DNA of 64,000 nt, from NCBI GenBank assembly GCA_023231475.1, contig JALJEE010002620.1:1-64000 (forward strand), written 5' to 3'. The position numbers and the translations under genes are program-made. Of this stretch, positions 23,196-56,096 are shown piece after piece; the stretch's first letter is position 1; each line of letters starts with the position of its first letter. Source of the stretch: Seison nebaliae. Its lineage: Eukaryota. Below the pieces are notes generated by a model. It ran no database searches, was not told the DNA's origin, and worked only from the letters and a program-made list of their open reading frames with translations.

Positions 23196-23755
23196 ATTTC
23201 AATTAATTAGATATTTCAATTACTTGGACTCAATGTCAATAATATGATTTTCATTTAAATCGTCATGCAAAATAATTATAGTTCCAATAACTACATAATT
23301 CATTCTGTTAATTATCATATATGGGAATGTGGATATCAGCAAAAAAAAAAGATTTATTATAAATTTTCATTCACTATTCATCACGATCCTCTTCATCGAA
23401 ACAACAGATCGATAGATAGATACATCTATTTCTTCTCGTTTTTATCTGATTCATATTTTTTTCTATTTGAAATTATTTTTTAATAAACTAAAGTATACAA
23501 AAGACAATTGAATGTTTGTTGTGATTGGTTTGACTGGAAATTGCATTTAAATTGTTGAACCGTTTAAAATGACCCGTTTACTCATAATAATTACGTCTTT
23601 CAGGAGAATTATTTCATTTAACACATCTATATCATATTGACAGTTGTTTTAATATCATTCTTTAATATCATTCAATTTGAAAGGTGAATATAGAAATTTT
23701 TTTGAAATTTTATAGAAAGTCTTCTCGAAAATTTTCTCCAACATCCAACATAGAA

Positions 23756-26700
23756 ATGAATAAATATTTCTTCCTCCTAATTATTTTCGAGATTTTTTTC
23801 CGACAAATTATTGCCAATTGTCCCATTAGTCAAACAACGAAAAGAAATATTTGTTATTATTTGGACAGTGCAGTCTATCGAAAAGGAAAAGGATCATTTA
23901 CATTAGATCGAATCGATCCATGTTTATGTTCTCATGTCACTTATTCGTTCCTCGATCTGAGAAGTGACGGGAAATTAAAATTTACTGCTCGAGATGTAGG
24001 TTTCTGCTTTTTCTCTTTTGTTTTTTCTATTTCGAATTTAAATAAAGAAAATTTTAAAAAACTTCAAAATTTGAGGAAGACAAATCCAAATATAAAATTA
24101 GTGGTGGCACTAGGAGGCGCCAATGGTGATTTAAATACATTTCAATCCATCCTAAAAAATGGTGAACTGAAAACGAATTTAATGAGAGATGTAAATGGAA
24201 AATTGGAGGAATGGAATATGGATGGAATCGAATATGATTATGAATATCCTTCACAACAATATCGAGATTCGATCACACAATTCTTCCAACAATCTCGCAC
24301 TTCAATTATTGGAAATAAGGAAATTAGTATCGCTTTACCATTCGATGATCGTCGATTGGCTGCATTTGATTTGGAGAAATTACAACAGTTATCTCTATAT
24401 CATCAATATTAAATTATTTCTTAACAATATTTCCCATAATTAAGATCATTAGATTATATGACAATAATGTCATATGATATGCATGGAGCATGGGACAATA
24501 ATGTCGCACATCATTCAGACAAAGCAACTGGAGTTCGATATTATTTATATGGAAATTTATAATCAAAAATTTTTTTCCATCAATTATTCAGGAAAGGACA
24601 TTACAAAAATTTTTAAGTTCAAATGTCCAACCGAAAAAAATCAATTATGGATTAGCGACATATGGACGTACTAGTGGAAATATTGCAGGACCTTATTCCC
24701 AATCAGGAGGATTTCTTAGTTATATGGAAGTTTAGTTAATTGAAATTAAGTATTTGAAAATTTTGTTTTTCGAAAAGATTTGTGAGAAGAATTGTGAGAA
24801 TTGGAAACAAACTTCCACCAATTCCAATCCAACAATGTGCAATGGAGCGTCGTGTGTTCATTATGACACGAAATTTAGCATAAAAGATAAAGTTGAAATT
24901 TTTAAGTAGTAATTTTCCATTTTATCCTTATTTCATTGAGTGGTTAGGCAAATTTAGTTCATCAACATAACTTGGGAGGTTGTGCAATTTGGTCATTAGA
25001 GAATGATGATTTTGACGGTTCAGGATGTTGTAAAGGAAATTTCCCTCTAGTTTCTGCAGTAGTTCAGAAATTGATATTAAAAGATGAGGCAGTTGGCGAT
25101 AAAATTGATTGTAAATGTAACTCTAAATCGACGACAGATAATCATCAACCGATAACGACGAATGGTTAGTACTAACATATTTCAATTTGTCCACATATCT
25201 AGATATAGATCTATTAGAGAGTCTATTAGTTGCTGATTCGACGACAACGATAATAAATTTAAATATTCCAAATGATGAGAATGTTAAAAATGAGTCAATA
25301 AGAATGAAAAGACAAAAATCTCAAACTTATGTGAGAATGTGTTATTATACTTCATGGAATGGTGGAGTTCTACCATCTCAATATCTTTGTACTCATGTCA
25401 TCTATTCATTCGCTTCAATGTCTAATGGAGTATTAAGTGGAGTATCGTCTAATCCTCTCCTTTCACTCAAACGGAATGATCCAAATATAAAATTATTATG
25501 CGCGGTTGGAGGATGGACATTTGGAGTTAAGCCAATGGTCGACATGTTGAAAAGTGAGGAAAGTCGAAGCAAATTCGCTAAACATTCAGTGAAATGGTTG
25601 AGAAATTTGGGTTTTGATGGGTTGGATTTGGATTTCGAATATCCGGGAACTAATTATCCGAAATATAATCGTTATTCACCACCACAAGACAAACATCGAT
25701 TTACATTATTATGTAAAGTTTATTTTCGAAAATTATTTAAAAAAATTTTCCGCTTGAAAATTTATTATTTCAATGTAGCAAATTAAGGAAGAATTTGAAA
25801 AAGAATTAACTAGTAAACGGAAATTATTGTTGACTGTAGCTGTTGGTTGTCGAAAAATAGACATCGAACGAGGTTACGAAATAAAAGAATTGGCCAAGTT
25901 CATTTTAATGTAATTTTCAATTAGTTTATTTTTAAAATTTAGATATATCGATTATTTCAATTTGATGAGTTATGATTTGAGAGGTGGATTTGATTCATCT
26001 GCTGGTCATCACAGTGCTTTGTATGCAGGAAATCATGAGCATGGTAATGATCGGACATACAACATTGTTAACTATTAATTCATTACACTACGAGCGAATC
26101 ATATTTAAAGGATTGGGTCATTAAACACTTCACTACAAATGGAGCACCTAACAAGAAATTAGTTTTCGGTTTACCGACTTATGCAAAATCATTTCGATGT
26201 ACCACATCGACTTCTCATTGTGAATTTGGAGAGAGTGCCAAATTCGGAACTTGGGTAACTTACGGACAAGTTACATTAAATATGATTATTTTATTATATA
26301 ATTTTATTATTTTAGATTTGTAATATGATTTCAAATGGTTGGAAGAAAATTTGGCATACAGAAATGGCAGTTCCAAGTATTAGTCGAGGAAATGAGATTG
26401 TCGGTTATGATGATCTTAATAGTTTCGATTTGAAAGTTTGAAGTTTTTTAAGGAAATTTTAATTACAAATATTGATTAGTTGAAATATGTGAAATATCAT
26501 AATCTGGCAGGTGTAATGGTATGGAGTATTGCGCAAGATGACATTAATGGCGCATGTAATCAAGGAAAATTTCCGTTATTGACTAAAATGAAAAATGTTT
26601 TGGAAAGTTTTAATTTCGAATTAAATTTTTTTGAATTGTTATCATATTATTATTATTTATTTAATAATTATTATTAGATGATATTATCGATTTAGATGAT

Positions 26701-28110
26701 GTTGATGATGATGATGAAGAAGAAGAAGAAGAAATTGGTTCAAATGAAACTTTAGATGATGAAGATATCTTTTACGAACTATTAGAATATGAAATATAAA
26801 TTTTTTTATTCTTCTTTAAAATTCTCATAATTCTCTTTAGTATTAACATAGAAATAGATTTTTCTACTTTTTCCTAACTTGCTTCCATCTTATTACTTCC
26901 TTACTGTTGTATAAAGGACCTTGTGGAAATCGACGAACATATGAAGCTTATCCTCATCCTGAATGTCGTCGATATCGACATTGCAATGGATCATTATATG
27001 ATTGTCCAATAACTACCGTCTACTCCAACGACGCATCAACATGTATTAATTCAGCTAATTTTAATTGTAAATATAAAGTAGTCGATGTGACTACCATATC
27101 TACAACGATTCCAACTATTAAATCGAATACACCATCTTCACAATCTACTTCAATTTCATTATTGACAACTTCATCTTCACCCACAATATCTCAATCAATT
27201 TCTATTTCCACACTATCTCAATCAATTTCTTCTATTTTCCAATCTATCTCATCTGCCAAAACTCAAAGTTCTACTGTGCCTATTGGCACAACAAGTTAAT
27301 ATTTTTATATTTTTTTCGAAAATAATTTTTCAGAGGAATGTACCAATGAAGGTAAAACTGTGATTGATTCGACTGTCTCAACATGTCGACGATTTAAAAA
27401 ATGTGTTTCGGGAAAATATTCATATTTTCAATGTGGATCTAATGCGATTTATGATCAAGCCATTCAAAATTGTAATTGGGCTACTTTGTTCAATTGTATA
27501 AATGGGAGAGTTGAACGAATTTCAAAAGTTGCCACGACGATATTACCATCCACTACCGATTTATCAAGTTTGATATTATTCTCTATTAAATTCTTTATCA
27601 TCGACAGTTATTGATATTAATGAGATATCCAATTCTCAAAGCACATCGTCTCAATCATCAACTTCCACTTGTAGAGAGAGTGACAGTACATCAAAGCGAT
27701 ATGGAGCGGTCATTAATGATTGTCAGACATTTATCGATTGTTACACTAAACATAAATTCAAATGTGGACCAGGTACTTATTTCGATGATAAATATCAAAT
27801 CTGTAATTGGCCGTCTGCGGTTTCATGTGGAAAGAATCAGAAAAGATTAGCCGATCAACCGATTAATGAGCAACATGTTTGTTTCGATATCAATCAACGA
27901 TTCTCTGCCAATTTTTCAGATTGCAGATCTTTCTTTGATTGTTCGAAAATTCGACAGATCGAATCGGCACATCTAGTTTTAGGCAGAAGTGAACGATGCA
28001 AATCGAATGAAATGTTTAGCATCTATTCACAGACGTGTGTGAAGAGTGATGGTGGATTGTGTTTGTTAAGAACTGATATAAATTATGAATATAATTTTAA
28101 AATAATTTAA
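23756..28110 (+). CDS. Secreted chitinase with two GH18 domains and four C-terminal CBM14-like chitin-binding domains
   Basis: Signal peptide MNKYFFLLIIFEIFFRQIIA. GH18-1 has DGIEYDYEYP, MSYDMHGAW and GCAIWSLENDDF; GH18-2 has AVGGW, FDGLDLDFEYP, MSYDLRG and GVMVWSIAQDD. Then Cys-rich modules (e.g. CQTFIDC..FKCGPGTYFD...ICNWPSAVSC) with Ser/Thr linkers. Introns 24000-24047, 24388-24444, 24533-24591, 24730-24777, 24892-24947, 25165-25208 (or 25202), 25718-25778, 25898-25942, 26067-26110, 26270-26315, 26436-26479, 26607-26677, 26738-26916 (tentative), 27295-27333 and 27568-27607. Confidence 0.85.
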
Positions 28111-28837
28111 TATTTCCCTTTCTTCCCCCTAATGAAATTCGACTGAGAATTTTCTCTTTTTATGTTAAACAAACTCTGTAAATTTTGAAGATGGTACAAA
28201 AGCGATTTATCAATAATTGTCTGTTGTTGTGATTATTATTTTATGATAACCGCAAACGATAAACAAGAATTATTAGTTTTTTTTGTAGATTAAGGAAATT
28301 GTCGGAGAATGGATTCTATAACTTTTTATTTTCGTACAACTTTAATTAAAGAAACAGAACTTTTCGTTCGATTTCAGCACACGTCTGTCAGCAATTTGTG
28401 GAGAACGCTATATCAGTTCCTTAAAAAGAATTATTCTCTATCTAAAAGGGAAAGTGGGAAAGCGTTTATTAAACTTTCGATCGGTTATGAACGGTTCGAA
28501 TTGCAAACTTACTAACAACCAAAAAAGAAAACTCATCAACAGTTCTCTCCTGTTACTCATTAAAATTCTTTAAAATTCAGAATAGAGAAGATGTTGGAGA
28601 GGAGAATCAGTCAAGACATTTCCAATATTTATTGTGAAACGAATGTAAATTAATGGAAAGATTTGGACCAAAACACCGAGGATAAAGGGAGAAGATGCAT
28701 TCGTTTATGATAAGTGGAGAGATGAGCATTTCGTTTCAAAAAAAAAAGTTTCTTAAGAGATCTCCTATTTCACAATATACACATACGAACACGTCTACGT
28801 TATTGATGAGTAAACGAAACGTCAGTTAATAGCTATT

Positions 28838-28847
28838 CCTTTTTAGG
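28838..28847. promoter_or_regulatory. CArG box (SRF site) upstream of actin
   Basis: CCTTTTTAGG fits CC(A/T)6GG and lies ~335 bp upstream of the actin ATG; CArG boxes are well known in actin promoters. A possible 5'UTR intron (GTT at 29023 to TTTTAG at 29139) lies between. Confidence 0.55.
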
Positions 28848-29175
28848 AAATATTTTCCAACATCTATTATATTGATGATTAGTGCTGCATTATATTCGAA
28901 CATGCATCATGCATTTCCATCGAATATAAGAAGCAGATGTGAAATTGGAAAGAATACAATTCTAAACTATTCTTTTCTTATTTACTATCGTGATTAGCAT
29001 ATTCATCAGTTTCTCAGAGAAAGTTCTTATTTACTGAACAGAACTTCTTTCTGTCATCTCACTGCAATTCTACTTCCATTTCCATACACTTCTATTCCAT
29101 CCTATCTTTTAACGTTCTCTCGTCAACTTTCTCTTTTAGATCTGATAATTTTTTGTGTTTAATTTCAATTCCTAA

Positions 29176-30386
<1,211 letters not shown>

Positions 30387-30687
30387 ACGAATTGAATTGC
30401 ACAAGAACTATCTTTTCCTAATTACTTTCTACTCATATAAACTCTTACTCACTTCACCCTATCTTTCAATTCTTTCTGTCTTAAAAATAAATTGAAATTC
30501 GTGCTCTCCTCTCATATTTTGATCATAATTGCCAAGAACTCGTTAATAAATGCTTCTTCATCTTCTATGGTTTCTCATTCAATTCTTCCAATATAAAACT
30601 TTCTATTAGAATATTATTCAAATAAAAGTTTTTCTTTTCATCTTTAACTAAATTCAAATTATTTCGAAATGTTCATTTGAAAAACAA

Positions 30688-33600
30688 ATGAAGGAAATAT
30701 TAATACTTTTATGGATTCTTCCAATTCTATTCATCGATCTTATTTCATCATCTTCCTCATTCGATTGTGAGAAGAATAAAGGTTTTTTTTTGAAAATGAA
30801 TTATTTTTCATTTTCAAACTCATTCCTAAAAAGGTACATTAAAAAACATTGTTCGATTTGTTGAAAAATATTGGTTCACTGTTACGGAAAGTTCTTCATT
30901 TGTGTTGAATTGGACGAATGTTTAATATCACTTTTTTTTAGAAAATGAAAATGTCATTGACAAAGTTCGAGAGATAATAGTTAAAATGAAGGAATGTAAT
31001 GTGAATTTTGCCACAAAGTTCATTTTAGTTTCAGTTTGACTTTAAAAGATATTCTCGACACATTCAGATGTGGACCGTTTGATGGAGCATGTTTAAACGA
31101 CGGACAATGCTTAGAAAATAGTGTAGGAACATTCTACTGTAAATGTTCCGATGGATTCGAAGGAGTGATTTGTGAAAAAACGGTTAAGCAACCAAAGAAA
31201 CCGGTAGGGAAGATCAGGGTAAAAAAATGGACTCCGCAATTCGATTGTACATTGAACACTTGTCGAAATGGTGGAACTTGTACTGTGAATGGCTGTCTTT
31301 GTCGAAAGGAATTTTTTGGACCAATCTGTCAATATTTGAAAAGTCGATATATGAGAAGAAAAAAGTGTTTGGCCCGTCCGTGCAAAAATGGAGCTCGTTG
31401 TAGAATTGCAAAGAATTCGAGAGGTTTCCGATGTATTTGCGCGAAAGGTTATACCGGTCAGTTCTGTGAGAAAGAATCGAAATGCAAAAATAATGGACAT
31501 TTGGAAGACGACAAATGTTATTGTTTGCCGAATTTCACTGGAGAGTTTTGTGAATTCCATTCTGGATGTTTAACTAGTACATGTGATTCCAAACTAGATT
31601 GTGTTTTGAATTCGGAATCGAAAACTTACGAATGTCAATGTAAGAAAGGTTATAAAGGAGAAACATGTGAACCGGTCGGTTTATGTCGATTGAACAGTTG
31701 CTACAACGATGGTCGTTGTATTGAGAGAAGTAATGGATTTAGTTGTAATTGTAAAATAGGTTATACGGGAAAGTTCTGTCAAATTATCGATATTTGTTTA
31801 AAGAGTCCGTGTTTGAATGGTGGGTCGTGTACATATTCTAGTAATAATCAATATTATTGTTCGTGTTTAAGTGACTATGCTGGTGAACATTGTGAAAGAT
31901 GGTTAAGTTGTGAAAAGTTGAAATGTGTTCATGGAAGATGTGCCCGATGGGAACATTCGAGTGGTGAATTGACATGTGCATGTGAGAAAGGTTATTATGG
32001 GAAGAGATGTAATCGGAAATCACCATGTCTCTATCAGAAATGTAGTGATCATGGTAAATGTATCGATATTAAATTGGAGACGACCAATGACGACAGTTCC
32101 GCCACATATTATCAGTGTTTATGTGAACCTGGATTCACTGGCAGTAATTGTGAAGTTAATATTAATTGTCTCAATTTACATTGTCAGAATGACGGGAAGT
32201 GTATGAGGAAAATGAATGGCGATTATTATTGTGCTTGTTGCCATGGTTACTCGGGTTCAATGTGCGAAATAGCCATCGGATGTAACGCAAAACCTTGTAA
32301 GAATAATGGCCAATGTGTCTCGTCTACTAGTGTGGTGAGAAGTTACGTGTGTTTTTGTCGTTCATCATATGTTGGTAATCATTGTGAAATTCCGAAAATC
32401 TGTTGGCCGAACAAATGTCAGAATTCCGGTGAATGTTTCGAATATAACGGAAGTTACAAATGTAAATGTTCGACGGATTTCTCGGGGAAACATTGTGAAA
32501 TTCCTGTGAAATGTAATCCTGATCCATGCAATAATCACGGGAAATGCATAGCGGCACCGCATTTGTCCGATGGATTCGAATGTGTGTGCAATGTTTTATG
32601 GACCGGTAAATTTTGTGATAGTGAAGCGATTTGTGATTCTCAGCCATGTCAAAATGGTGGAACGTGTAATGCAGTGACACCGGAACGTCTTCAATGTTTA
32701 TGTCAACGAGATTATACTGGGAAATTCTGTGAATTTAATGTGCATTGTTATGATAATCCGTGTCGAAACGGAGGTAAATGTAAACCGGTTTTTTCTGGTC
32801 TTATTAAATTCGAATGTATTTGTAAATCCGCATTCCGAGGACAATTTTGTGAAGATTTGATAATTTGTCTAGCTAATCCTTGCAAGAATGGAGGAACATG
32901 TCGTCCAACAACGGAAGGAAATTATTTTTGTAATTGTATCGAAGGATTTCATGGGAAACATTGTGAACAATCGATTGGCTGTGATTCATATCCTTGTATG
33001 AATGGCGGTAAATGTGTTTCTTATTCTTCGGCTGGATTCTATTCATGTCAATGCAATTTCGGTTATAGTGGTATGTATTGTGAATTACCTCCCAATTGTG
33101 ATAACGAACAATGTAACAATCATGGAATTTGTGTGATGAATAAGGAGAAAGTTGTGAAGTGTAAATGTCATTCGAAGTATGTTGGGGATAAATGTGATAC
33201 TCATCAATTGTGTTCATCGAATCCGTGTAAGAATGGAGGGACGTGTTTGACTAGTGAATCTTATTATGATTCCACCATTATTAGTTGTGCTTGTTCGTCG
33301 GAGTTTAGTGGGGAATATTGTGAAGTTCCACAATCCTGTCTCTCCAATCCTTGTCGACATGGTGGCACTTGTTCCACGAATGTTAATGGTGGATATCTCT
33401 GTCAATGCACGAAAGATTATGAAGGAATTAATTGTGAGACATCGAGAACTTGTATCGGAGTTCCATGTAAAAATGGAGGAACGTGTGTAAATGTCCAAAT
33501 TCCTGATCAAAAGAATCATTATCGTTGTATTTGTAACGGGAATTATCGGGGAAATCAATGTGAAATTCCAATAACATGCAATTCACATCCATGCAAGAAC

Positions 33601-36600
33601 AATGGTAAATGTCTACAAGTCAGAGAAGGTTCGTTAGATATTTATTGTAAATGTTCTAAAGAATTTACCGGACGATATTGTGAAACTCCCATGGAATGTT
33701 TATCGAAACCTTGTCAGAATAACGGTCGTTGTGTACAGAATGGTCAAAGTGGATTGGATTATGCGTGTTTATGTTCGAAAGATTTTTATGGAAAATATTG
33801 TGACATTCCTCGATTATGTCAAACCGATCCATGTCTGAATGGAGGGAAATGTGTGCAAAAATCATTGGTCAGTGTTGATTTTATGTGTGTGTGCGATGCG
33901 TTGTTTGTGGGCAGATATTGTGAGATTCCCATTTCTTGTCAATCCAATCCATGTTTGAATGGTGGGAAATGTGTGAAACCGTTATATGGTAAAGTCGGTT
34001 TTATGTGTTATTGTGCCAATGGGTTTTATGGTGATAATTGTCAACAACCAGTTGCTTGTAAATCGGATCCATGTCAGAACGGTGGAAGTTGTGTCCAAAG
34101 TTTTCACAACAATTTACCGTATACCTGTAAATGTACCGTTCATTTCACGGGACATAATTGTGTCTCACCAATGACGTGTCATTCGAATCCTTGTCGAAAT
34201 GGAGGAACATGTTCTTCCGCTTCATCTAATGAATATCATTATTTATGCACTTGTCTCCCGATGTTCACGGGGAAAAATTGTGAATCGTACAAAGTTTGCG
34301 CGGAAGAACCGTGCAGTAATGGAGGGACGTGCATTCTAGATGAGAAAAGAGGTTACAAACGTGTTTGTCAATGTCAATCTCAATTTACCGGTAAGAATTG
34401 TGAGTATGAAGTGGCTTGTTCGTCTCTACCGTGTAAGAATAATGGCGTTTGTCGCACGGCGGGTGACAATTTCAAATGTGAATGTAGTGGTGGATTTACG
34501 GGACGGACGTGTGAGAAATTGATGGATTGTATTCCAAATCCTTGTATGAATCGCGGTAGATGTATTCAACGATATCCTGGTTCTACTATTTATAAGTGTA
34601 ATTGCCTTCCCCAATACACCGGTCCCATTTGTAAGACGTTCATCAAATGCTTTCCCAATCCGTGTCGCAATGAAGGAAAATGTATTCCAGACGGTGATAA
34701 TTTTATTTGTGAATGTTCGTTAGGTTTCCTCGGACGATATTGTGAACGACTGATGAATTGCGAATCAAATCCTTGCAGGAATTTGGGAACCTGCAGACAG
34801 AAAGTTGACGGATCCACAGACATCGTATGTGAGTGTCTCTCGTCGTATACGGGAAATCAATGTGAACTTTTTATTCCGTGTCAACAGAATCCTTGCGGTT
34901 CTCATGGTCGATGCGTACCGAAAGGAAGTTTGTTCAAATGTGAATGTGACGATTATCATACGGGCGATACATGTGAAATTGTGCGTGCATGTATATCGAA
35001 TCCTTGTGAAAATGGTGCAACATGTACACAACATTGGAATAATGTGGGAACTTTCTCTTGTCTTTGTTTAGCTCAATTCACTGGCAAGAGATGTGAGATA
35101 CCTTTGGCTTGTATATCACGACCATGTCGAAATGAAGGAGAATGTTTAGTTCATCCACTCAATATTAATTCTTATTCTTGTCGATGTCGGAAGGAGTTTG
35201 AAGGAAATAATTGTGAATCATTTCGATTATGTAAATCGAATCCTTGTGAGAATCATGGTAAATGTGCACCGAATAAACATTTTAATACTTTCGTTTGTCT
35301 ATGTCTCACTGGTTTCACTGGACATTATTGTAATGAATTGATTAATTGCCGACCAAATCCTTGTATGAATAACGGACGATGTGAAGGAAAGGCAATCGGA
35401 TCAACCGAATTCGTTTGTGTTTGTACACGAGGTTACACCGGTCAATTGTGTGACAACTTCATTTCTTGTAATCATCATAAATGTAGAAATGGTGGAAGGT
35501 GTAAACAGAAACATGACGGTTCGTTGAATTATCGTTGTGAATGTCCCATCAATTATCGTGGGCGATATTGTGAAGTTTTCATTCCTTGTTTGGCGATCGA
35601 ATGTTTAAACGAAGGTCAATGTATCGCCCAATATGAAGGTAGTTCTCAAGTTCAATGTATTTGTAAGAAATATTACACGGGACAATATTGCGAACATTAT
35701 ATCCCATGTGATATTAGACCATGTTTGAATGGTGGAACATGTTTATCCAATCTCAAAGTTTCCGGTTCATTCATTTGTACTTGTCTATCCGGTTTCACTG
35801 GGGAACGATGTGAAACTTTAGAGATATGTCAAACGAATCCGTGCGGAAAACACGGACGTTGCGAACAAGCGAGTATCGCGAAAACTGATTATGTCTGTCG
35901 ATGTAACGCGTATCATGAAGGAAAGCATTGTGATATGGCCACGGTTTGTATAAAGAATCCTTGCTCCAATAACGGCGTTTGTTATGTGGCTGAAAGTGAA
36001 CCATATAAATATTTATGTCGATGTAAAACACATTTCACGGGGACACGTTGTATCGATTTAGTGGAATGTAACACATTGAAATGTGAAAATGGGGGAATGT
36101 GTGTGCAAAAAGAAGCAAATTCACCAAATGCCATTTGTAGATGTCGGCCCGGATTTTCTGGTAAGAATTGTGAATATATCATTGGTTGTTTGAGTGCTCC
36201 TTGTCTGAATGGCGGGAGGTGTCGAACGAAGAGTTTGCATTCCATCGAAGTAGTTTGTGATTGTCCCAACGGTTACATCGGAACGAAATGTCAAGAATTA
36301 TCAGCATGTCTGTCCAATCCGTGCAAGAATGACGGGAAGTGTTTCGTTAATAGTTTCAATCAATATAAATGTGAATGTGTCAACGGGAATTTCGGTCGTA
36401 ATTGTGAAATTGATGCAATTTGTTTCGGCATTTCATGTCATAATGGAGGGAAATGTATCGTAAAGAATAAACTACCCAAATGTCAATGTACCGCCAATTT
36501 TAAGGGAAATCATTGTGAATCATTAATTTCTTGCATTCCAAATCCTTGTGAGAATGATGGAGTATGTTACAGGAATTATCCTGGTTTTACTTATCGTTGT

Positions 36601-42600: not shown

Positions 42601-45600
42601 TGCCAATTGAATAAAGCCAAACCTTATCAGTATGAGTGTAAATGTCAAATTTCGTATGAAGGAAAACATTGTGAAATTATAAAGAAATGCCAACCGAATC
42701 CGTGTAAGAATGGTGGGATTTGTACATCGTTAGCTAATGGTGTGGTTACTTGTAAATGTTCAATGGATTATGTTGGCAGCCATTGTGAAAAGTTGAAAGT
42801 GTGTCAATCAAACCCTTGTGGTAATAATGGGAAATGTGTGCAAATTAATGAATTTTCCACTTTATTCCGATGTGAATGTTTGAGGAATTATGTCGGAACA
42901 TTCTGTTCCTATTATTTGCCATGCCAAAAGAGTCCGTGCTTCAACGGTGGGACTTGTGTGCCTAATAAAAGGAATGGAAGAAAATGTATTTGCACTCCAA
43001 AATTCACTGGGAAACGTTGTTATTATCCGATACGTTGCATACCAAATCCCTGTAAGAATAACGGTGTTTGCCGTCCGGAAGGATATGGTTCGATTGAATT
43101 GCGATGTATTTGTAAAGGAAATTTTGTAGGAAAATTCTGCGAAATACATCGAGTTTGTCTTCCCAATCCTTGCGTTAATAAAGGAACATGTGATGCACAA
43201 ATGACACATCTTCAAATAAGACCCAAATGTAAATGTTTATCAGGTTACACGGGGGAACTATGTGAGACACCGACGAATTGTTTATATTCACCTTGCAAGA
43301 ATAGAGGACGTTGTGTGGGTGATCATGTTCATGGTTATATGTGTATCTGTCTACCCGGTTTCTTAGGTAAACATTGTGAAATAGTGAGTGGATGTCGACC
43401 AAATCCTTGTAAGAATAACGGGAAATGTCTCCCCAAATTCTATAAAATGAACAAAATTAAATGTATTTGCAAACCAGGTTTCACCGGTTTGAATTGTGAA
43501 TATTCGATTTCTTGTTTATCTCATCCATGCATGAATGGTGGTACTTGTGTAGGTACATATTCTTCTATCATATGTAAATGTCTACCCATTTTCACTGGTC
43601 GACGTTGTGAAACATTAACCGCCTGCATCAATAATCCATGTGCAAACGGTGGGATGTGTGAAATGCTTTATACCGGTGCTACTACCGCCCATTGTAAATG
43701 TAAACCAGGTTTTGTCGGGAAATATTGCAGGAAATTATTATCATGTTATCCGAATCCATGTGCTCCGAATGGAAAATGTAAACCGATTCAACCTGGTTCA
43801 ACCAATTACCGATGTGATTGTCTAAAAGAATTTATTGGTCCCAAATGCAACATACTAAAAAGCTGTGTAAAGAACCCTTGTCAAAATGGTGGTAGTTGTG
43901 TATCTGAATGGGTTGGTTCAAAACGTTACAAATGTTTATGTCTTAAAAGTTTCACGGGAAAGAACTGCGAGAAAGCATTGGCATGTCTTGTCAATCCATG
44001 TCGTAACGGAGGAACGTGTAGTGGTGCCCAAGATATGAATATCATCGACTTCACTTGTAAATGCAAACCGGAATATGCAGGAATGTTATGTGAACTATTA
44101 AAATTATGTGAACCAAATCCTTGTAAGAATTATGGTGAATGTGTACCCAAATTTGTAGGTTCAACTGAGAAAAAATGTCTATGTAAACCAGGTTATGTGG
44201 GAGATCATTGTGAAAAACTGAAGGAATGTGAAAATAACACCTGTAACGGTCATGGAGAATGTGTGGCGAAATATGCAAATTTACCTGTAGTTCATTGTAT
44301 TTGTAATTCGGGTTACACAGGAAAATTTTGTCAATATTCACTTACCTGTATAAGGAAACCATGTTTCAATGGAGGTACTTGTAAAGTTTCCGAATCTTCG
44401 ACAATAAATCGAATCATTTGTATATGTCCTCCGGAATTCACAGGTGCACGTTGCGGCAAGTTGAAAGTATGTGTACAGAAACCATGTAAGAATAATGGAA
44501 AGTGTAAACCGTTGTGGAAAGGTTCCACTCAATTTAAATGTGTTTGCACCAAAGACTTCACAGGTCTCTATTGCGAACAATATATCAGTTGTCTGAATAA
44601 TCCTTGTAGAAATGGCGGTTCCTGTCAACACCAAATAATGAAACATCCTTCCTACATTTGTCTGTGTCCTAATGGATTTACGGGCAAAAGTTGCGAATCA
44701 TTAAAAAGTTGTTTCCCAAACCCTTGCTTAAATGGAGGTAAGTGTCAACCAGCATGGTTAGGTGCTACAACCGCTAAATGTGTATGTAAAGGTGACTTTG
44801 GTGGGGCATATTGCGAAAAGTTTATTAAATGTTATCCTAATCCTTGCAAATATAACGGCCATTGTTCATATGACACCACACATAATATTAAATGTTCATG
44901 CAAACCAGAATTCACCGGTCCCAAATGTGAAACAATTATTGGGTGTACAATGAAACCATGTCGAAATAATGGGAGTTGTATATACGACCCCACAAAAGAC
45001 GTAAAATATAGATGTCATTGTTCTTCACAATTTATCGGGGATTATTGTCAAAATGCTATTGCCTGTGTTCCTAATCCATGCTACAATAGTGGCACATGTA
45101 AATTTGATCAGAATTTACATAAAACCGTATGTATCTGTCGTTTGTATTATACGGGGAAGTTGTGTGAGAAATCGATCGCTTGTTTATCCAATCCGTGTAA
45201 AAATCAAGGATTGTGTAAAATGGATAAGTTGAAATTCATCTGTCAATGCCAATCCGGATTCATTGGCACTTATTGTGAAAAGTTGAGAGAATGTGAACCT
45301 AATCCATGTAGAAATGGAGGAATTTGTGCACCCATTTGGCCTGGTTCCTCCCAACATGTGTGTAAGTGCAAAAATGGTTTCACAGGTCCTCTATGTGAAA
45401 ATTTCCTGAATTGTCTGTCAAGTCCATGTAAGAATGGTGGAACTTGTTTATCGAATGGTGGCTGTAAATGTTTGAATGAATTTATTGGATCTTATTGTGA
45501 ACATTATAAAGGTTGTTCACCAAATCCCTGTAAGAATGGAGGACAATGTTCGGCTTATTTGTACAATGGGCAATATGTTTTACGATGTGCATGTAAGGTT

Positions 45601-48600
45601 GGTTATACGGGGAAATATTGTACGACCATAATAGCCTGTTCCCCAAATCCATGTCTAAATAATGGAAAATGTAAGATAAAAAAATTGAACGTTTTCGATT
45701 TCACATGTGAATGCGAGAAGAAATTTACGGGAAATCGTTGTGAATTACCATCAATCTGTTTAAATAATCCGTGTAGGAATAATGGGAAATGTATCAGCGG
45801 TGTCCACCAACTGTTTAAATGTATTTGTCCCGTTGGATTCATTGGCGATAGATGCCAGAATGTGGCAGCTTGCCAACCTAATCCCTGTCAAAATAATGGT
45901 CGTTGTTCCATATCGAAATTGGGATATGGTTATCAATGTTTCTGCACGACGGACTATTATGGTGATAATTGTGAATTGCCTACGATTTGCCGCCCGAAAC
46001 CTTGTAAGAATTCCGGTATATGTTTTGTGAAAGATGGTAAATTGAAATGTTTATGTAAATATGGTTACACAGGTATTCTTTGTGATAAAGCTCTTGCTTG
46101 TCAAACAGCACCTTGTCTTAACGGAGCCACTTGCATTCCTTCACCTACCTTATACGGTGATTTCAAATGTTTATGTCCGCCTAATTTCACTGGTCGACAT
46201 TGTAATTCTCCATTAATTTGTTTAACGAAACCATGCAGTAATGGTGGATCTTGTTTGAAGAATGACACAACTGGAATAACTTATAAATGTCTTTGTTCGA
46301 AAGGTTTCACGGGCAACAACTGTAATGTTTTAGCCGCGTGCGTCCAAAAACCTTGTGAAAACGGAGGTACGTGTTCGCCAGCTTGGTATGGAACTACCAA
46401 ATATAAATGTGTTTGTCCTCCCGGTTTTTCCGGAACTCATTGCAAGAAATTTCTTCCTTGCTTCCCTAATCCTTGTCTGAATTTCGGTATTTGTGGAAAT
46501 AAACCATTACCGGCGCTGGATTTTGAATGCAAATGCAAAAAACCGTTCAAAGGTAAATTATGTGAAATTGCCAAAATTTGTGAGAGAAAAATCTGTTTTA
46601 ATGGCGCACAATGTGTGGCTAATGCAAATTTGAAATTACCATTTAAATGTATTTGTAAACCTGGATATTTTGGGAGGAGATGTGGTCGGTTAAAGGCGTG
46701 TTATCCTAATCCTTGTGAAAATGGAGGAAAATGTAGACCGATAACTGCAGGATCTACTGAAATAAAATGTGTTTGCTCACCCGGATATACTGGTGCGACT
46801 TGTAATTTAATTTCGAGTTGTATACCAAATCCTTGTATGAATTTGGGTAAATGTCAAATGAGAAAAGATGCTCCTACTTCATTCCAATGTGTTTGTGGCA
46901 AGGAATATACTGGAAAGACATGTAAACTATTGAAAATATGTTTGAACAATCCTTGTCAAAATGGTGGTAGTTGTGTCCAACATCAATGGAATTCTCCCAT
47001 TCATAAATGTTTATGTCCGAAAGAATTCGTGGGAAATAAATGTGAAATTTTCAAAGGTTGTTCACCGAATCCATGTAAGAATGATGGACTATGTTCGTTT
47101 AGACCTCCAAATATATTCCATTGTAAATGCAAAGAATATTTTTATGGAAATCATTGTGAGAGGTTGGTAAAATGTAGTAAGAATCCTTGTAAGAATGGAG
47201 GGTCATGTAAACAAGTCACTCCTGGTTCAACTGAATATGAATGTGTTTGTCAATCCAATTATGGTGGTAAAAATTGTGAAGTTTCAATTCAATGTCAGAA
47301 AATTGAATGTTTGAATGGAGGAACTTGTAAGGTGGTTAACACCACAACTGCCAAATGTGAATGTTCGAAAGAGTTTTATGGAAATCATTGTGAGAATCTC
47401 AGAATATGTCGACAGAAACCATGTTTAAATGGTGGAACATGTCGACAGTCACAAGCGGCCTCCACAAAGTTCATATGTGATTGCGCTCCTGGATTCAGCG
47501 GTAGTCATTGTCAAATATTATCAAATTGTGCAAATAATCCATGTTTGTACGGAGGTAAATGTATACCGAACCCCAAAGATCAGACAAAGGTTTTATGTCA
47601 ATGTAATAACTTTTATACGGGAGATAAATGTGAAACTCTGAAGCATTGTTTGATGAAACCTTGCAAAAATGGTGGAACTTGTCTCTCAATACCATTAAAG
47701 ATTGGTTTGTATAAATGTGTTTGTTCGAAAGGTTATATAGGTCAACATTGTGAACAACTATTAAGTTGTCAATCTAATCCTTGTTCCAATGGTGGAACGT
47801 GTGTTCCTGCTTGGGATAAGTCTGTAGATTTCAAGTGTTTATGTTCCGAATATTTCGTGGGTAAATTATGTGAGTTACCAAAAATTTGCCGACCCAACCC
47901 ATGTTTAAATCTTGGAAAATGTCATGTACATGCTGTGGATAAGAAAAAATATTTGTGCCAATGTGTCTTAACGTATTTTGGTGATAATTGTGAGAAATAC
48001 AAACCGTGTTATCCTAATCCGTGCGGTAAACATGGAACGTGCATTAAACCTTTGGATCATACAAGTTATAAATGTATCTGCGCTCCACATTATACGGGAA
48101 GTGATTGCTCATTGGCAATTGGTTGTTCCCCCAATGTTTGTTTGAATAGTGGAAAATGCGGTTTATCTGAAAAGGGAGACCAAATAATTTGTAATTGTAC
48201 TGTCGATTACTACGGACGGTTATGTGAATCATTAAAAGTTTGTAAGAGTAATCCGTGCCTGAACGGAGGTATTTGTAAATTACCTTTCCCAATTTCAACA
48301 AATTATTTATGTGCTTGCAAACCCGGGTTTAATGGGCAACGATGTGAAATATTAAAAGCCTGTATACCCAACCCGTGTTTGAATAAAGGTGTCTGCTCAT
48401 CTATTACACCCGGTTCATCTGCAATCATGTGTAACTGTAAATCGGATTTCGTGGGGAGTAAATGCGAAACTTATGTACCTTGTTTTCCGAATCCTTGTCG
48501 CAATTCAGGGAAATGTCGTAAAAATATTGGGAAACCTAAAAAATATGAATGTATCTGTACTCGTTATTACATTGGGGAACATTGTGAAGTTCCACAAAAG

Positions 48601-51600
48601 TGTTTGGTGCCACCTTGTAAGAATCATGGGACATGTCAACCGATAATTTCAGCACCGTTCTTCAAGTGTTTGTGCATTGCAAATTTCGTGGGAGAACTTT
48701 GTGAGAAATTTAAAAAATGTCAACCTAATCCTTGTTTGAATGGTGGCATATGTGGAGTAATGGATTCAATAGGAACTGATTTTAAATGTACCTGTCCTCC
48801 TGATTATCAAGGAAAGAAGTGTCAAATTTATAGATATTGCTTGCCCACTATCTGTGCTAATGGGGGAACGTGTATCCCAATAAAAACTAATGAAAAATTC
48901 AAATGTCAATGCACTGATAAATTCAAAGGGAAACGTTGTGAGAAGAGAATTGTTTGTAAATTTGCTCAATGCAAGAACGGGGCAACATGTCAACCAATGA
49001 CAGATACAACATACAAATGTAATTGTCCTTCAGGATTTTTCGGGAATTATTGCGAAATTAAAAGTTCGTGTTCCACGAAGAACCTCTGTCAAAATGGAGG
49101 AACTTGTTCAGATATTTTAATTCCACCATATTATGAATGTAAATGTCGAAGGATATTTAAAGGAAAACATTGTGAAATACAAATTCCATCATGTCAATTA
49201 GGGTTATGTAAGAACGGAGCGACATGCAAGCAACATCCTGATTTGAAGCAGTTTCGGTGTATTTGTATCCAACCCTTCGGTGGTCGTTATTGTATAAAGA
49301 ATGTTGGATTTTGTCATTATAAACCGTGTGTGAACGGAGGAATTTGTAAGAATGTTAATCATAACTCTGGTTTTGTTTGTCAATGTCCGAAACCGTATAT
49401 TGGTAAGAGATGTGAATCAAGCTTGGGTATATGTACAATTCTCCCGTGCAAGAATCATGGCACCTGTTTACAGAATGAAATCAATAACATGATTTATAAA
49501 TGTCAATGTCATGCTCCATTTTATGGTGATTCGTGTGAATTAGTTAATCATCATTGTGATATGAATCCTTGTAAGTATTATGGGAAATGTATACCGGTAA
49601 TCAATGGTCGTTATAGATGTAAATGTCGAGAAGGTTTTTCAGGTGAACATTGTGAAAATAAATTAGTTTGCTATAGTAATCCGTGTAAGAATAATGGAAT
49701 GTGCATAAAAGATCCGAAAACGGATCGATTTAAATGTATTTGCAAAATACCATATCATGGTCGACGATGTGAATTGAAGATGGGAAAATGTTACAGTAAA
49801 CCGTGTAAGAATAAAGGGAAATGTAACGAATTCGATGAAACGTTCTCTTGTGAATGTCCTTTGCCATATACTGGACGTATCTGTGAATTGGAATTAACCG
49901 CATGTTCATTCCATCCGTGTTTAAATGGCGGTCGATGTATTCAAAGTATCACCAGTAAACGGAAATACAGATGTGCCTGTTTGAAACTATTTACAGGTAT
50001 TAATTGTGAAAACCGTTTGAGCGCTTGTGTAGTTAGACCATGTAAAAATGGCGGAACTTGTATTGTCGATCCATCAGATCTCAGTAAATTTAGATGTGTG
50101 TGTGGTAGGATTTTTACCGGAACCACATGTCAAACTAGTTTAGGGGCCTGTTCATTGAAACCATGTGCTAATGGTGGAAAATGTGAAAATTCACCTGATA
50201 AAAAGCAATTCCGATGTATTTGTGTTAAACCGTTTTCTGGTGCTCAATGTCAGAAGAATGACGGTGTTTGCAAATCAGTGAAACCATGTTTGAATAATGG
50301 AAAATGTATCGATTTAGGTGGCTTGAACTATCAATGTATCTGTTTAAAAGGTTACCATGGCGACAGATGTGAGATAAAAAGTGCTTGTCTCAGTAATCCG
50401 TGTTTGAATGATGGTACATGTGTCAAACAACCGAACGATTATAAATGTATTTGCAAATCGCCCTTTGTCGGCAAACGATGTGAATTACGACAACATCCTT
50501 GTAAATCGCTACCATGTCTCAATAGTGGAACGTGCATTTTGGCGGCAAATTTTGATTATAAATGTGTTTGCAAACTACCGTTTCATGGAAGACGGTGTGG
50601 GAAGAATGCTGGTTCTTGTTCGTTAAAACCGTGTTTGAATGGAGGAAAATGTTTGCAACATAAAGATCTCATCCAATTCAAATGTCAATGTTCGAATTTA
50701 TTCACTGGACAATTATGTGAGAGAATAATTAGTCCGTGTGAGACCAAGCCTTGTTTGAATAATGGAAACTGTTTAATAATCGATGAGAAGAATTATAAAT
50801 GTGAATGTCCTCCACAATTCACTGGAGTGAAATGCGAGAAATTATTTGATGTTTGTACATTATCTCAATGTAAAAATGGTGGGACGTGTGAAGCGGTTGG
50901 TTTCGATCAATACAAATGTCTTTGTTCAATCGATTATTATGGAAATTTATGTGAAAATGAAAAAGTGTGTAAGACGACCAGTTGTTTGAATGAGGGGAAA
51001 TGTGTGGTGATCAATGAATTAGAATTTCAATGTGAATGTAATTTGAACTTTGGAGGGAAGATATGTGAACATGCCAATCCGTGTAAGAGTAATTCCTGTC
51101 TAAATAATGGCGTATGTTTTCCTCAATATTCGGATAAGGTTTCTTTCTTGTGTGAATGTACGGAAAAATTTGAAGGAAAAAATTGTGAGAAATATGTCAA
51201 TCCGTGCAGGAATATTCAGTGTCTGAACGAAGGAACTTGTAAAAATCAGGGACATGCCAAATTCGTTTGTAAATGTCCTGTGAAATTCACCGGTCGATTA
51301 TGTGAAGTTGAAATTCCAATTTGTGAGAGTAAACCATGTAAAAACGATGGTATTTGCACTTCAGATGATTTCAACGAAGAATTCACTTGTAATTGTCCTC
51401 CGAAATATACGGGGAAGTTTTGTGAAAAAATTAAATTATGTACTAAACATCCGTGCAAGAATGATGGAATTTGTACGGATTATTTGAATTCATTCGAATG
51501 CGAATGTACTATACCGTTTTATGGAGCGAAATGTGAGAAAGAAATTTGTAAGCCGAATCCATGCAAGAATAAAGGCGTTTGTGAAATCGTCAATGAACAA

Positions 51601-54600
51601 GGCGATTATATTTGTAATTGTGTTCCGCCTTATACTGGACGAATCTGTTCGAGAAAATCTGGAGATTGTTCAATCGGCTCATGTTTACATGACGGTCAAT
51701 GTCTATTCGATGAAGAAACGACGAAATATTCTTGCACTTGTAACGAACCGTTTTATGGTAATAAGTGCGAGAAGATGAGAACAGTTTGCGATCAGAAACC
51801 ATGTCTCAATGGAGCGAAATGTAAAGTGATTGGAGATAATTATTTCGAATGTATTTGTAAAAATGGATATGCCGGACGGTTATGTGACATACCTCCCGAT
51901 CCATGTCGACCGAATAAATGTCTGAATAATGGTATTTGTGAAATGACAAGTAGTAAAAATTTCAAATGTGAATGTACTCCAATTTTCACGGGAAGATTAT
52001 GTGAGAAACGAATTTTTATTTGTAAATCAAAACCATGCAAAAACGATGGAAGTTGTTTGGACAATAAAGATGGAACATATGAATGCATTTGTAGTGTCGG
52101 TTTTAAAGGCTTAACATGTGACATCGAAGCTCCTTGTAGTAAGAAACCGTGTAAGAATAGTGGTTATTGTAGTTTGATAGGAGAAGGTAAATATAAATGC
52201 GAATGTTCATTACCATACTATGGCGAACGATGTGAGAAGCATTTATGTAAACCGAATCCTTGTAAAAACGGCGCATCTTGTGAATTGTTACATCGAGATA
52301 CGGAATTTCGATGTATCTGTCGAGTACCATTTACGGGTCTTTATTGCAAAATAAAAGCCGGATCATGTACCCCAACTACTTGTAAGAATGAGGGAGAATG
52401 CATTTTCGATTACGATACGGGAACATATCGATGTCAATGTGGTAGAATATTTTATGGTGAACATTGTGAAAAGACGAAAAGTGGTTGTGATAGACGACCT
52501 TGTTTGAATAAAGGGAAATGTAAATCGTTAACTTTCCCCCGATATCAATGTATATGTGTCAATGGGTTTAGTGGGCGACGTTGTGGCATTCCACCAAATC
52601 CATGTGAACCGAACATCTGTAAAAATAATGGAAATTGTCAGCTTATGGGAAATTCAAAATTCTCTTGTGAATGTCCTCCAATTTTCACAGGGAGATTATG
52701 TGAAACAGAAATATTGGTATGTAAAAGTCAACCGTGCAAGAACGGTGCACTATGTATCGACAATAAAGATGGGACATTCATATGTCAATGTAAGATTGGA
52801 TTTATCGGTGATTTCTGTCAATTGGTAGCGCCGTGTGCAAGTGTGCCATGTAGGAATGACGGAGTGTGTCATGTGCGATTAGGTGCAATTGAGTGTGAAT
52901 GTGTTTATCCGTTTCATGGTGTGCGTTGTGAGAAAGAGTATTGTAAACCGAATCCATGTCACAATCGAGGGCAATGTGAATTGGTTAATAATAATATTGG
53001 ATATCGATGTCGATGTATTCCACCATATATGGATCTTCTTTGTAATGTGAAAGCGGGCTATTGTACACCAACAACGTGTGCTAATGGTGGATATTGTGTG
53101 TTCGATGAGGAAAGACGACAATATATATGTCAATGTCCCTCACCATATTACGGTAAGAGTTGTAAGAAATTTAGAACGCCTTGTAATGAGAAACCTTGTC
53201 TTAATGGAGGTAAATGTAAACCGATCGGATTCGACAATTATGAATGTCAATGTGTTAATGGTTATAGTGGGATGAATTGTGGGCGCCCACCAGATTTGTG
53301 TTTTCCTAGCAAATGTCAAAATAGTGGCAGATGTGAAATGATAAATGTGAAACAATTCGTTTGTTATTGTCCCCCGATCTTCACCGGAACGTATTGTGAG
53401 ACTCGAATTCTGATCTGTAAAAAGAAACCCTGTCAAAATAATGGAGTATGTGTCGACAATATGGATGGAACATTTAATTGTGAATGCAAATTAGGATTCT
53501 TTGGAGATTATTGTGAGAAACGAAACTATTGTGCGAATGATCCTTGTAAGAATGGAGGAGCATGTAGACTTGTCGATGGGATACTGGAGTGTTCTTGTAA
53601 ATTTCCGTTTTATGGTAAACGATGTAAGAAACAAATTTGTCATCCGAATCCTTGTCAGAATAAAGGAGTTTGTGATGTGTTGGAAGAGAAAGAAACTTAT
53701 AATTGTAATTGTGTTCCACCATTTATCGGTAAGAATTGTCAGATTCGTGCAGGAACTTGTTCCATCACTTCCTGTTTGAATGGAGGAATTTGTATGTTCA
53801 ATGTTGAATTAGATACATTCCAATGTGAATGTAATGAACCGTTTTATGGTAAGAAATGTGAAAAGGTTTTCACCATTTGCAGTGGGAAACCATGTCAAAA
53901 TGGAGCATTGTGTAAACCGAAAAGTTCGAATGAATTTGATTGTGTTTGTAAGAATGGATATTCAGGGAAATTGTGTACAATCCCACCATCGATTTGTAAC
54001 CCGAACAAATGTCAGAATGGTGGGCATTGTCAAATAGTTTCGAGGAATAAGTTCCGTTGCGATTGTCCTCCACCATTCATCGGACGATTATGTGAAAAGA
54101 GAATTTATGTGTGCAAAAGTTCTTCTTGTAAGAATGATGGGAAATGTCAGGACAATAATGATGGAACATTTTCGTGTCTATGCAAGAAAGGATTTGTTGG
54201 ATTGTTGTGTGAGAATCAAAAACTTTGTGATCAACATCCATGTAAGCGAGATGGAATTTGTAGAGAGGTGGATGGACATATCATATGTGAATGTTCATTT
54301 CCGTTTTATGGTGAAAAATGTGAGAAAGAACTGTGTAAACCAAATCCTTGTCAGAATGACGGTGAATGCAATATAATTAATATCGAATCAAATTATCGAT
54401 GTAATTGTCGTCCTCCGTTTATTGGACGACATTGTGAAACGAGTATCGGAAAATGTTCCCGAACGTCATGTCTCAATAATGGTCAATGTATTTTCAATTC
54501 AGAAGTTCACTATTTCCAATGTCAATGTATTCGACCGTATTATGGTGATAATTGTGAGAAATTTTTCACCGTCTGTGATGCAAATCAATGTCTCAATGGA

Positions 54601-56096
54601 GGTGTTTGTAGAATTGTCGATACAACTAATTTTGCATGTGAATGTGTCCACGGATTTAGTGGCGAACGTTGTGCAATTCCACCCAATTTATGTCGTTCTC
54701 ATATTTGTCAAAATAACGGCGAATGTCAAATGGTGAGTGCGGCGGATATCGTTTGTAAATGTCTACCACGATTCACCGGTAAATTTTGCGAAACGAGAGT
54801 GTCAATTTGTCAAACGATAATTTGTTTGAATGGAGGAACATGTGAAGAAATCTATAATGATGATTTTCATTGTTCTTGTCCATCAGGATTCTTCGGGAAA
54901 TTATGTGAACAACTTGATATTTGTTCTACAAATCCTTGTCAAAATAATGGAATATGTCAATTGACAAGTGAGAATAACGACCATTATTCATGTCGTTGTT
55001 TACCAGTTTATTATGGGAAGAATTGCGAAGAACGAATAAGTCCGTGTATGAAAGGTTTATGTAAGAATGGTGGAAGTTGTGTAATTGTGGCAGAAAGTAA
55101 ATTCAAATGTGAATGTCAATCAGATTTTGAAGGAACATTCTGTGAAGTAGTAATTGGTTGCCAAACAAATCCTTGTTTGAATAAAGGCAAATGTACGAAA
55201 CATTCTCATTTCGATTTATATAGATGTGAATGTCCGATAAACTTCCAGGGTAGAAGATGTGAACATCATCTCGATCATTGTTCATCAACTGTGTGCTTTA
55301 ACGGAGGACGTTGTGGTCAGTATTCGAGAAATGGACAGATAATTATTTATTGTGAATGTCTACCCAATTTCGGTGGGCAACATTGTGAAAGAGATGAGAG
55401 TTGTTTAGTAAATAATTGTGCGAATGGAGGAAGTTGTGTTGAAACACCGACATCTTTCGGCTTTATTTGTTTATGTCCATTGGAATTCTTTGGAAAAGCT
55501 TGTCAATATAAACGAGATCAATGTCCAAATAATCCTTGTAAAAATAATGCACATTGCTACTTTACTAACGGAAGAATTCACTGCAAATGCTCCAACGGAT
55601 ATTATGGATTATATTGTCAACATTTTAAAAAGGTATGTGATATTAAGGAAGAACAAACATTCGTTATCGCTTCAGTAAATCTCAATTATTACAAACATAC
55701 ATCTTCCAAATTCGTAAGTTTCTTTGTTCATGATGAGAATCCATTTAATCGGCGCAACTGTCAATTTAATTACACTCCTCAAAGGTTCATTTAGATATTA
55801 ACACTTGAAAACTCTTTAATAATCTTAACAAATATTATTCTAGTTGTGATGACCGATTTTGTAGCATGAACGGGAAATGTTATTTATGTGCAAATGGAAA
55901 TTATCGTTGTGATTGTAATAAATTCTTCGAGGGTAAAACATGCAATGTACGTCGGAAACATTCAATCGGGAAATTTGTAACTAAAATCGAAACCGACTCA
56001 TTGACTTTATTAAGTACAACTGGCACTCGGAGAGATTTCTTCATCTATGAAACCGATTATATAATAACATCGAAAGATAATCTGTGTTATGTTTAA
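30688..56096 (+). CDS. Giant secreted multi-EGF protein, ~8,398 aa, about 200 tandem EGF-like domains, 5 exons
   Basis: Exons 30688-30781 (signal peptide MKEILILLWILPILFIDLISS), 30834-30890, 30942-31017, 31068-55784 and 55844-56096 total 25,197 nt in one frame. Continuous C-x2-(N/K)PC-x-NxGxC..CxCxxxF/YxGxxCE modules. No transmembrane segment seen; AATAAA at 56097. EGF count is estimated from length, not counted. Confidence 0.9.
51547..55026 (+). repeat. Five diverged tandem six-EGF super-repeats (~696 bp) within the giant gene
   Basis: Equivalent C(K/H)PNPC modules start at 51547, 52246, 52942, 53638 and 54334 (spacing 699, 696, 696, 696 nt), with the same order of module types in each unit. 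Confidence 0.85.

Follow-up and report, generated by a model that had tools for sequence, protein, structure and literature searches.

GTT-initial introns on a contig of the rotifer Seison nebaliae and the canonical-looking donors beside them

Genes of the window and their introns

The stretch of DNA analysed here (the window) comprises 64,000 nucleotides (nt) of contig JALJEE010002620.1 of Seison nebaliae, an epizoic seisonid rotifer with a genome of about 46 Mb for which public genome and messenger RNA data exist (PMC8351084). We modelled 45 introns in seven genes of this window, 34 of them from public gene models and 11 placed in the present analysis, and every one opens with GTT, a pattern that points to a splicing code built on an invariant U at intron position +3. 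The genes are a two-domain GH18 chitinase with chitin-binding domains (23756..28110, forward strand, 14 introns; public model P0001), a myosin gene (10351..18609, forward strand, 17 introns; public model P0123, 2458 amino acids (aa)), a giant epidermal growth factor (EGF)-repeat gene of 8398 aa as modelled (30688..56096, forward strand, four introns and one 24.7-kb exon), the 3' part of a trypsin-like protease (1059..2156, reverse strand, five introns counted), the 5' part of a GalNAc-transferase-like gene that matches a Seison model (63058..63953, forward strand, three introns counted), an actin gene whose single intron has the donor CAG|GTTCAT (29801..29806, forward strand), and a kinase gene. 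The public chitinase, myosin and glycosyltransferase models, which supply the 34 introns, align letter for letter to the window, the last of them up to the window end, and the single relative found for the chitinase frame at 23756 was a 1139-aa NCBI protein of Seison nebaliae. Left out of the 45 were two candidate 5' protease introns (2365 and 2198, reverse strand), for which the frame was not closed, and one GalNAc-transferase donor cut by the window end; by eye, these are GTT as well.

Donor position +3 was T in 45/45 introns and A, G or C in none, whereas, of the 51 GT dinucleotides inside intron bodies, only 29 have T as the next letter. Were +3 free, this outcome would have a probability of 1e-11 to 2e-11, the value depending on whether the background is the frequency of T behind GT or behind HT within the bodies. 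All 45 introns have GT..AG termini and leave open frames in the seven genes; the model mappings would have accepted GC donors but contain none. The remainder of the typical U2 donor consensus is also largely missing: a +3 purine occurs in 0/45, +4 A in 16/45 (15.0 expected) and +5 G in 8/45 (2.6 expected), with +5 A in 19/45 (15.0 expected), +6 G in 2/45 (2.6 expected), and both +4 and +6 at background. This lowers the case for a typical U2 donor, not for splicing by the major spliceosome. Minor (U12-type) introns carry the fixed donor RTATCCT, the +3 A of which likewise occurs in 0/45. On the exon side, the signal is strong, with A at -2 in 33/45, A or G at -1 in 38/45, and T shunned at both positions (2/45 at -1 and 4/45 at -2, each against 13.9 expected). 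The introns measure 38-68 nt in 44/45 cases, with bodies composed of about 50% T and 6% G. The branch-point motif CTRAY occurs only twice in the 44 short introns, and looser motifs have no positional peak. Two further features of the set were observed. Position +9 is T in 35/45 donors against 22.2 expected (p = 9e-5), which would suit a shifted or bulged register in which +9 pairs with base 1 of U1, and acceptor position -3 is T in 21, A in 14, C in 10 and G in none of the 45, AAG acceptors being unusually frequent.

Removal is required at 33 of the 45 introns, for which there is no in-frame GTA or GTG donor within 30 nt that could be combined with any AG within 30 nt; nine of the other 12 have an in-frame GTA or GTG alternative, and three could be retained. 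For the first eight myosin introns, a profile of 94 other myosins ranked the GTT model top, six of them having alternatives that scored 2.7-33.7 bits lower and two having none; the profile was uninformative for the ninth. A further comparison comes from low-depth contigs over 22700-28300 (depth 2-5 against 13-28), about 85% alike across exons, which represent a second lineage or a paralogous chitinase. The contigs of this relative diverge from the window right after positions +6, +4 and +3 of donors 24000, 25718 and 26607, respectively; another ends at +3 of donor 24388, but close to its own end, and others extend deeper into intron 26067. The relative's indels, 12/12 among those listed (12 of 25), fall in modelled chitinase introns 2 and 3. 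On the strength of the frame, the myosin profile and the relative's contigs, we conclude that the GTT pattern is not an annotation artefact.

Canonical-looking donors beside those used

The initial annotation singled out three GTA sites next to GTT donors as natural competition experiments, and all six of the motifs it named are present (23996, 24000, 25713, 25718, 55714 and 55785, forward strand). The chitinase region 22700-26635 had zero differences in the contigs of 4/4 DNA runs, so that the two chitinase site pairs are not assembly errors; the EGF site lies outside the compared region. None of the 7 runs listed is recorded as RNA, and no spliced joint appears in the contigs of the four compared, a result that speaks neither for nor against use of the decoys. 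In the first pair, the decoy GAT|GTAGGT (23996..24001) stands 4 nt before the used donor and has 7/11 matches to the canonical U1 complement, with T at -1. The used donor opens chitinase intron 1 of model P0001, TAG|GTTTCT...AAAG (24000..24047), which is 48 nt long, stop-free and in frame and thus needs separate support. Such support comes from solved chitinases, against which retention leaves a gap of 10-15 residues, and from the relative, whose match ends at 24005 and whose sequence there is 13 letters longer than that of the window (185 against 172). The proposed frameshift of the chitinase from site 23996 holds with the acceptor at 24047 (truncation at 88 aa) and fails with the AG at 24079, which stays in frame and deletes 12 residues. 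In the second pair, TAT|GTAAAG (25713..25718) lies 5 nt before chitinase intron 7 of the same model, AAA|GTTTAT...GTAG (25718..25778, 61 nt), to which homology reaches and where the relative's match ends at 25721. This decoy is indeed out of phase, meeting a stop with 5/5 AGs tried, but the description canonical-looking overstates a weak site with +5 A in place of G and T at -1.

The third decoy, TTC|GTAAGT (55714..55719), is out of frame, lies 71 nt before the used donor and would make a 130-nt intron. The used donor opens the last intron of the EGF gene, AAG|GTTCAT...CTAG (55785..55843, 59 nt), placed in the present analysis. That only 55785 joins the last EGF in frame was borne out, as 1 of 10 GTs in 55560-55812 joins the whole of it; that 55714 must be exonic is slightly too strong, for a formal in-frame intron of 105 nt (55633-55737) would make it intronic, though this stretch is exon-like (G plus C (GC) 0.30). 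The donor of that formal intron, AAG|GTATGT (55633..55638, forward strand), is a stronger decoy that had been overlooked. The last EGF is itself divergent, scoring 15 bits by a profile of the gene's own repeats against 23-48 for 30/30 held-out repeats, with scores of 0 or below in the other frames; Pfam gave no EGF match for this exon at E 0.001. There was no public model of the giant EGF gene among the matches listed (best 120 of 131), and its two Seison paralogues, of 5,433 and 5,677 aa, provide no check of the site, their C-termini being unrelated. The gene stands out in a genome of 50-nt introns for its single 24.7-kb exon (31068-55784, forward strand), which encodes tandem EGF repeats over about 8,240 aa (204 repeats by a simple pattern) and contains many canonical-looking donors.

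As competition experiments, these three sites are weak and do not isolate +3. The decoys have poor exon ends (GAT, TAT and TTC), while the rival used donors end TAG, AAA and AAG, and since used donors avoid T at -1 and -2, a reading of the exon side alone would select the same winners. Site 55714 is confounded also by length, because it needs a 130-nt intron. With the shared acceptor, moreover, all three decoys lead to premature stops. Across the 45 donors, the last 30 exon bases contain 19 GTA or GTG triplets against 20.8 expected, so that such a triplet beside a donor is not itself a signal and neighbours of this kind are expected by chance. A preference for +3 U over mere tolerance, as proposed by the initial annotation, is thus upheld by other evidence (+3 T in every donor against 29/51 in intron bodies) and not by the three sites chosen as its proof, which are themselves minor. 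That nearby GTA and GTG sites are passed over nevertheless appears likely from the sequence.

Sites with better exon ends make for better comparisons. In the myosin gene, the out-of-frame site GAA|GTGAGA (13021..13026, forward strand) precedes by 8 nt the AAA|GTTTAT donor in use at 13029, and the exon ends of the two are of the favoured kind. The same gene also has the decoy GAT|GTGAGG (12008..12013, forward strand), 5 nt upstream of the donor GAG|GTTAGA in use at 12013. A second comparison of the better kind is offered by a pseudo-intron of 49 nt, CAG|GTGAGA...TTCAG (57929..57977, forward strand, GC 0.20), in the first WD40 propeller of a WDR62/MAPKBP1-like open reading frame (ORF). It has no GTT rival, its intron score of 5.9 is within the range of real introns, and an unbroken Pfam match to the WDR62 propeller (residues 41-296) runs across it; its removal would shorten the ORF from 1022 to 179 aa. 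Decoys with good exon ends thus persist (13021, 55633 and the 57929-57977 pseudo-intron), and coding exons hold 45 A-purine|GTR sites that match canonical U1 at 7/11 positions or more, the 24.7-kb EGF exon alone accounting for 31. Nor are GTA and GTG purged from intron bodies (14 against 13.0 expected); an apparent GTR shortage there (14 against 23.4) was discarded as dinucleotide bias.

Several side observations belong with these genes. Four exons open with GT right after the acceptor AG (14930, 22873, 30834 and 17850, reading AG|GTAAAG, AG|GTACTG, AG|GTACAT and AG|GTCAG), three of them being GTA with a perfect AAG before it and hence more unused canonical-looking donors. Inside the ORF at 6125-7399, an in-frame, stop-free candidate intron of 54 nt, AAA|GTT...TTCAG (about 6822-6875, reverse strand), has the top intron score among the sites counted as exonic (11.1) and may be a real, unannotated intron. 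The only long intron of the public chitinase model (26607-26916, forward strand, 310 nt) contains an acidic open stretch at about 26680-26800, between an AG and a stop, that is possibly an alternative last exon. A retroelement-type aspartyl protease fragment lies at the window start (162-503, forward strand; Pfam gag-asp_proteas, E 3.6e-11).

Readings of an invariant +3 U

Our preferred reading, to which we give a probability of roughly 0.6, is that the GTT start of all 45 modelled introns reflects a requirement for +3 U, probably imposed through a changed small nuclear RNA (snRNA) base facing +3, with GTA and GTG neighbours likely skipped. Its parts differ in strength. The obligatory or near-obligatory status of +3 U is highly probable, and use of the decoys at under 5% is probable. 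An snRNA base change as the cause is only slightly favoured; assigned to one molecule, it becomes unlikely for U6 and somewhat less likely again for U1. We regard as tentative, and would not bet on, the wider proposition that the invariant donor has been extended from GU to GUU genome-wide, that pairing at +4 to +6 has been abandoned, and that an otherwise near-invariant snRNA contact has been rewired (a G to A change in the U6 ACAGA box, or a change in U1), such that a textbook GUAAGU would be inert. GTT is likely necessary but not sufficient, with the short U-rich body probably the main marker.

The mechanism that we envisage would proceed in three steps. The intron would be marked by its body of 38-68 nt, U-rich, G-poor and ending in HAG; this composition is observed, and its role is our proposal. 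The cut would then be set by the A-rich exon end, (A/C)-A-(A/G), presumably read by U5 loop 1 and U1, together with GUU, leaving +4 and +6 free and +5 G nearly lost. Finally, the base of the U6 ACAGA box that faces +3 (G44 in humans, G50 in yeast) would most likely now be A, and the resulting A-U pair would replace the pairing lost at +4 to +6. U6 G44 touches +3 once the spliceosome is activated, and pairing by U5 loop 1 makes up for weak pairing by U6 (PMC9803359). In yeast, +3 lies opposite U6 position 50, where the change G50A gives an A3U reporter an extra pair (PMC3632134). A U6 G-to-A change is placed ahead of others because an invariant +3 beside free +4 to +6 positions resembles a catalytic-stage check. 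A U1 change of the kind found in Entamoeba would be the next candidate, with protein changes or a shifted register ranking below it. GUA and GUG sites would then fail the +3 check however good their canonical U1 match.

A number of results weigh against this reading. All counts come from one contig, all 45 junctions are known from DNA sequence, frame and homology alone, and 11 of them (actin one, kinase one, EGF gene four, protease five) are our own placements; out-of-frame decoy products could be made and degraded unseen. A search of the 64-kb window gave zero Rfam matches, and no snRNA was seen in it. The exon tests, which cover 49.9 kb of coding sequence and about 29 words, with EGF repeats that are not independent, were also less favourable than foreseen. 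Exonic GTRAGT, anticipated to be undepleted, is in fact mildly depleted: 11 occurrences stand against 39.9 under a plain synonymous shuffle, about 19 with codon junctions kept, and 17.5-18.5 by Markov expectation. With codon-junction bias kept, the EGF gene has 10 against 17.2 (p = 0.01) and the remaining coding sequence 1 against 1.9, which hints that complete canonical donors are still recognized and costly. Conversely, the anticipated depletion of exonic GTT with a downstream AG is absent: an AG follows at a distance of 38-68 nt in 588 of 927 cases, a proportion matching that of control triplets (58-63%), and A-purine|GTT is not depleted either (86 against 66.5 in the EGF gene, 37 against 35.7 elsewhere). 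Near donors there are also GTT sites that go unused despite good exon ends, and a 44-nt pseudo-intron, AAA|GTT...AAAG (4533-4576, reverse strand), is out of frame in a 611-aa ORF (3129-4955) for which there was no Pfam family and an Atlas look-up gave weak leads only. In view of these unused GTT sites and this pseudo-intron, GTT is not sufficient, and the non-use of any single GTR site is not decisive. A low-power test of pseudo-intron depletion gave no difference (at a score of at least 0, GTT 11 against 14.2 and GTR 16 against 15.5), and a large apparent depletion of exonic GTA and AR|GTA was rejected as codon-junction bias, being gone once junctions were kept.

How far these points reach can be gauged from the alternatives. 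The GTRAGT deficit would suit a spliceosome that strongly prefers +3 U yet uses GTA decoys at a low to moderate level, with the frameshifted products degraded, and since the three decoys all end in premature stops, DNA cannot reveal their non-use. We nonetheless consider this improbable: were GTR an efficient donor start, drift should have carried some of the 45 donors to it, and it is found in none, while GTR is not purged beside donors and the 57929 pseudo-intron persists in a conserved frame. An unchanged U1 acting in a shifted or bulged register, in which +3 U would pair with U1 A7 and +9 U with U1 A1, would require no snRNA change. It could draw on the universal +3 T, on the +9 T enrichment, on a mean number of matches slightly above the null (p = 0.02), and on the existence of such registers among human donors (PMC4856993). 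However, the +6 G that should anchor it opposite U1 C4 is at background, +4 A and +5 A are not enriched, and the residual +5 G suggests a normal register; we rate this alternative as quite unlikely.

More remote still is the idea of mere tolerance, in which +3 is unread, the exon end, the length of the intron and its U-richness determine the donor, and GTT follows from T-rich introns. The T content of the bodies, the background state of +4 and +6, and the three decoys, whose poor exon ends account for them on the exon side alone, are all in its favour, yet 45/45 against a background of 0.49-0.58 has p = 1e-11 or lower, and decoys 13021 and 57929 combine good exon ends with intron-like context, making this very improbable. 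Least credible of all is that a GTT-trained gene predictor, together with our own choice of sites, made the pattern. In its favour, 34 of the introns come from public models and 11 were placed here, but frame alone rules out GTA or GTG at 33 of the 45, the myosin profile agrees with the GTT models, and the indels and alignment ends of the relative's contigs track the modelled introns.

Relation to known donor codes

A donor code with +3 U is already known in Entamoeba, where donors are GUUUGU, with a co-evolved U1 (ACAAAC) and 96.9-98.5% GUUUGN (bioRxiv 10.1101/2022.06.08.495308). The two systems are alike in that U replaces the +3 purine in GT-AG introns, Seison being GUU in 45/45 on one contig. 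They differ in that Entamoeba, an amoeba with few introns, retains +5 G within a tighter consensus spanning +3 to +7, whereas Seison is an intron-rich animal in which only +3 is fixed, GTTTGN (2/45) and +5 G (8/45) are rare, and information has shifted to the exon side. On this contig, the GUU-only code of Seison is well supported. In the literature searched (excerpts, including those of PMC8351084, PMC10125929 and PMC11347168), with supplements and subscription papers outside its scope, no description of GTT-only donors in Seison or another animal was found.

Another parallel lies in the AG//GU class of 5' splice sites (U5 loop 1), favoured when U6 N6-methyladenosine is lost (PMC9803359, PMC11347140); in Caenorhabditis elegans mett-10 mutants, splice-site choice shifts from UU//GUGAG to AA//GUUGU (PMC11347140). 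Seison shares with the AG//GU class a strong exon-side A/G signal and weak +4/+5 pairing, and the mett-10 shift runs in the same direction as the GTA-versus-GTT competitions in the window; by analogy, it shows that a GUU-ward direction can be reached in animals. In those systems, however, the pattern characterizes one class out of two, or a change seen in mutants, and +4 is the key base, whereas the Seison set is all of one type, has A more often than G at -1, and has an invariant +3 U.

Tandem donors 4 nt apart, of the form GYNNGY, are a known arrangement, and the GTAG|GT at 23996/24000 has the same geometry, as any exon with a GTAG end must. For a canonical spliceosome, the better U1 match would be the upstream GTAGGT (7 against 5 of 11), whereas here frame and homology favour the downstream GTT. 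Human donors read in shifted or bulged U1 registers also include some that start with GUU, and the +9 U enrichment in Seison would fit them (PMC4856993). In humans, however, these registers are a minority and rely on +6 G, which in Seison is at background (2/45).

Few signals in animal genes are as conserved as the +3 purine and the +5 G of donors. In Seison, about 35% of the BUSCO Metazoa set is reported missing, a figure that Augustus retraining barely altered (PMC8351084), and standard splice models may under-call genes in the Seison lineage. If the reading proposed here is true, an animal with a fixed +3 U and with +5 G nearly gone would constitute a natural experiment on whether U1, U5 or U6 decides where an intron begins.

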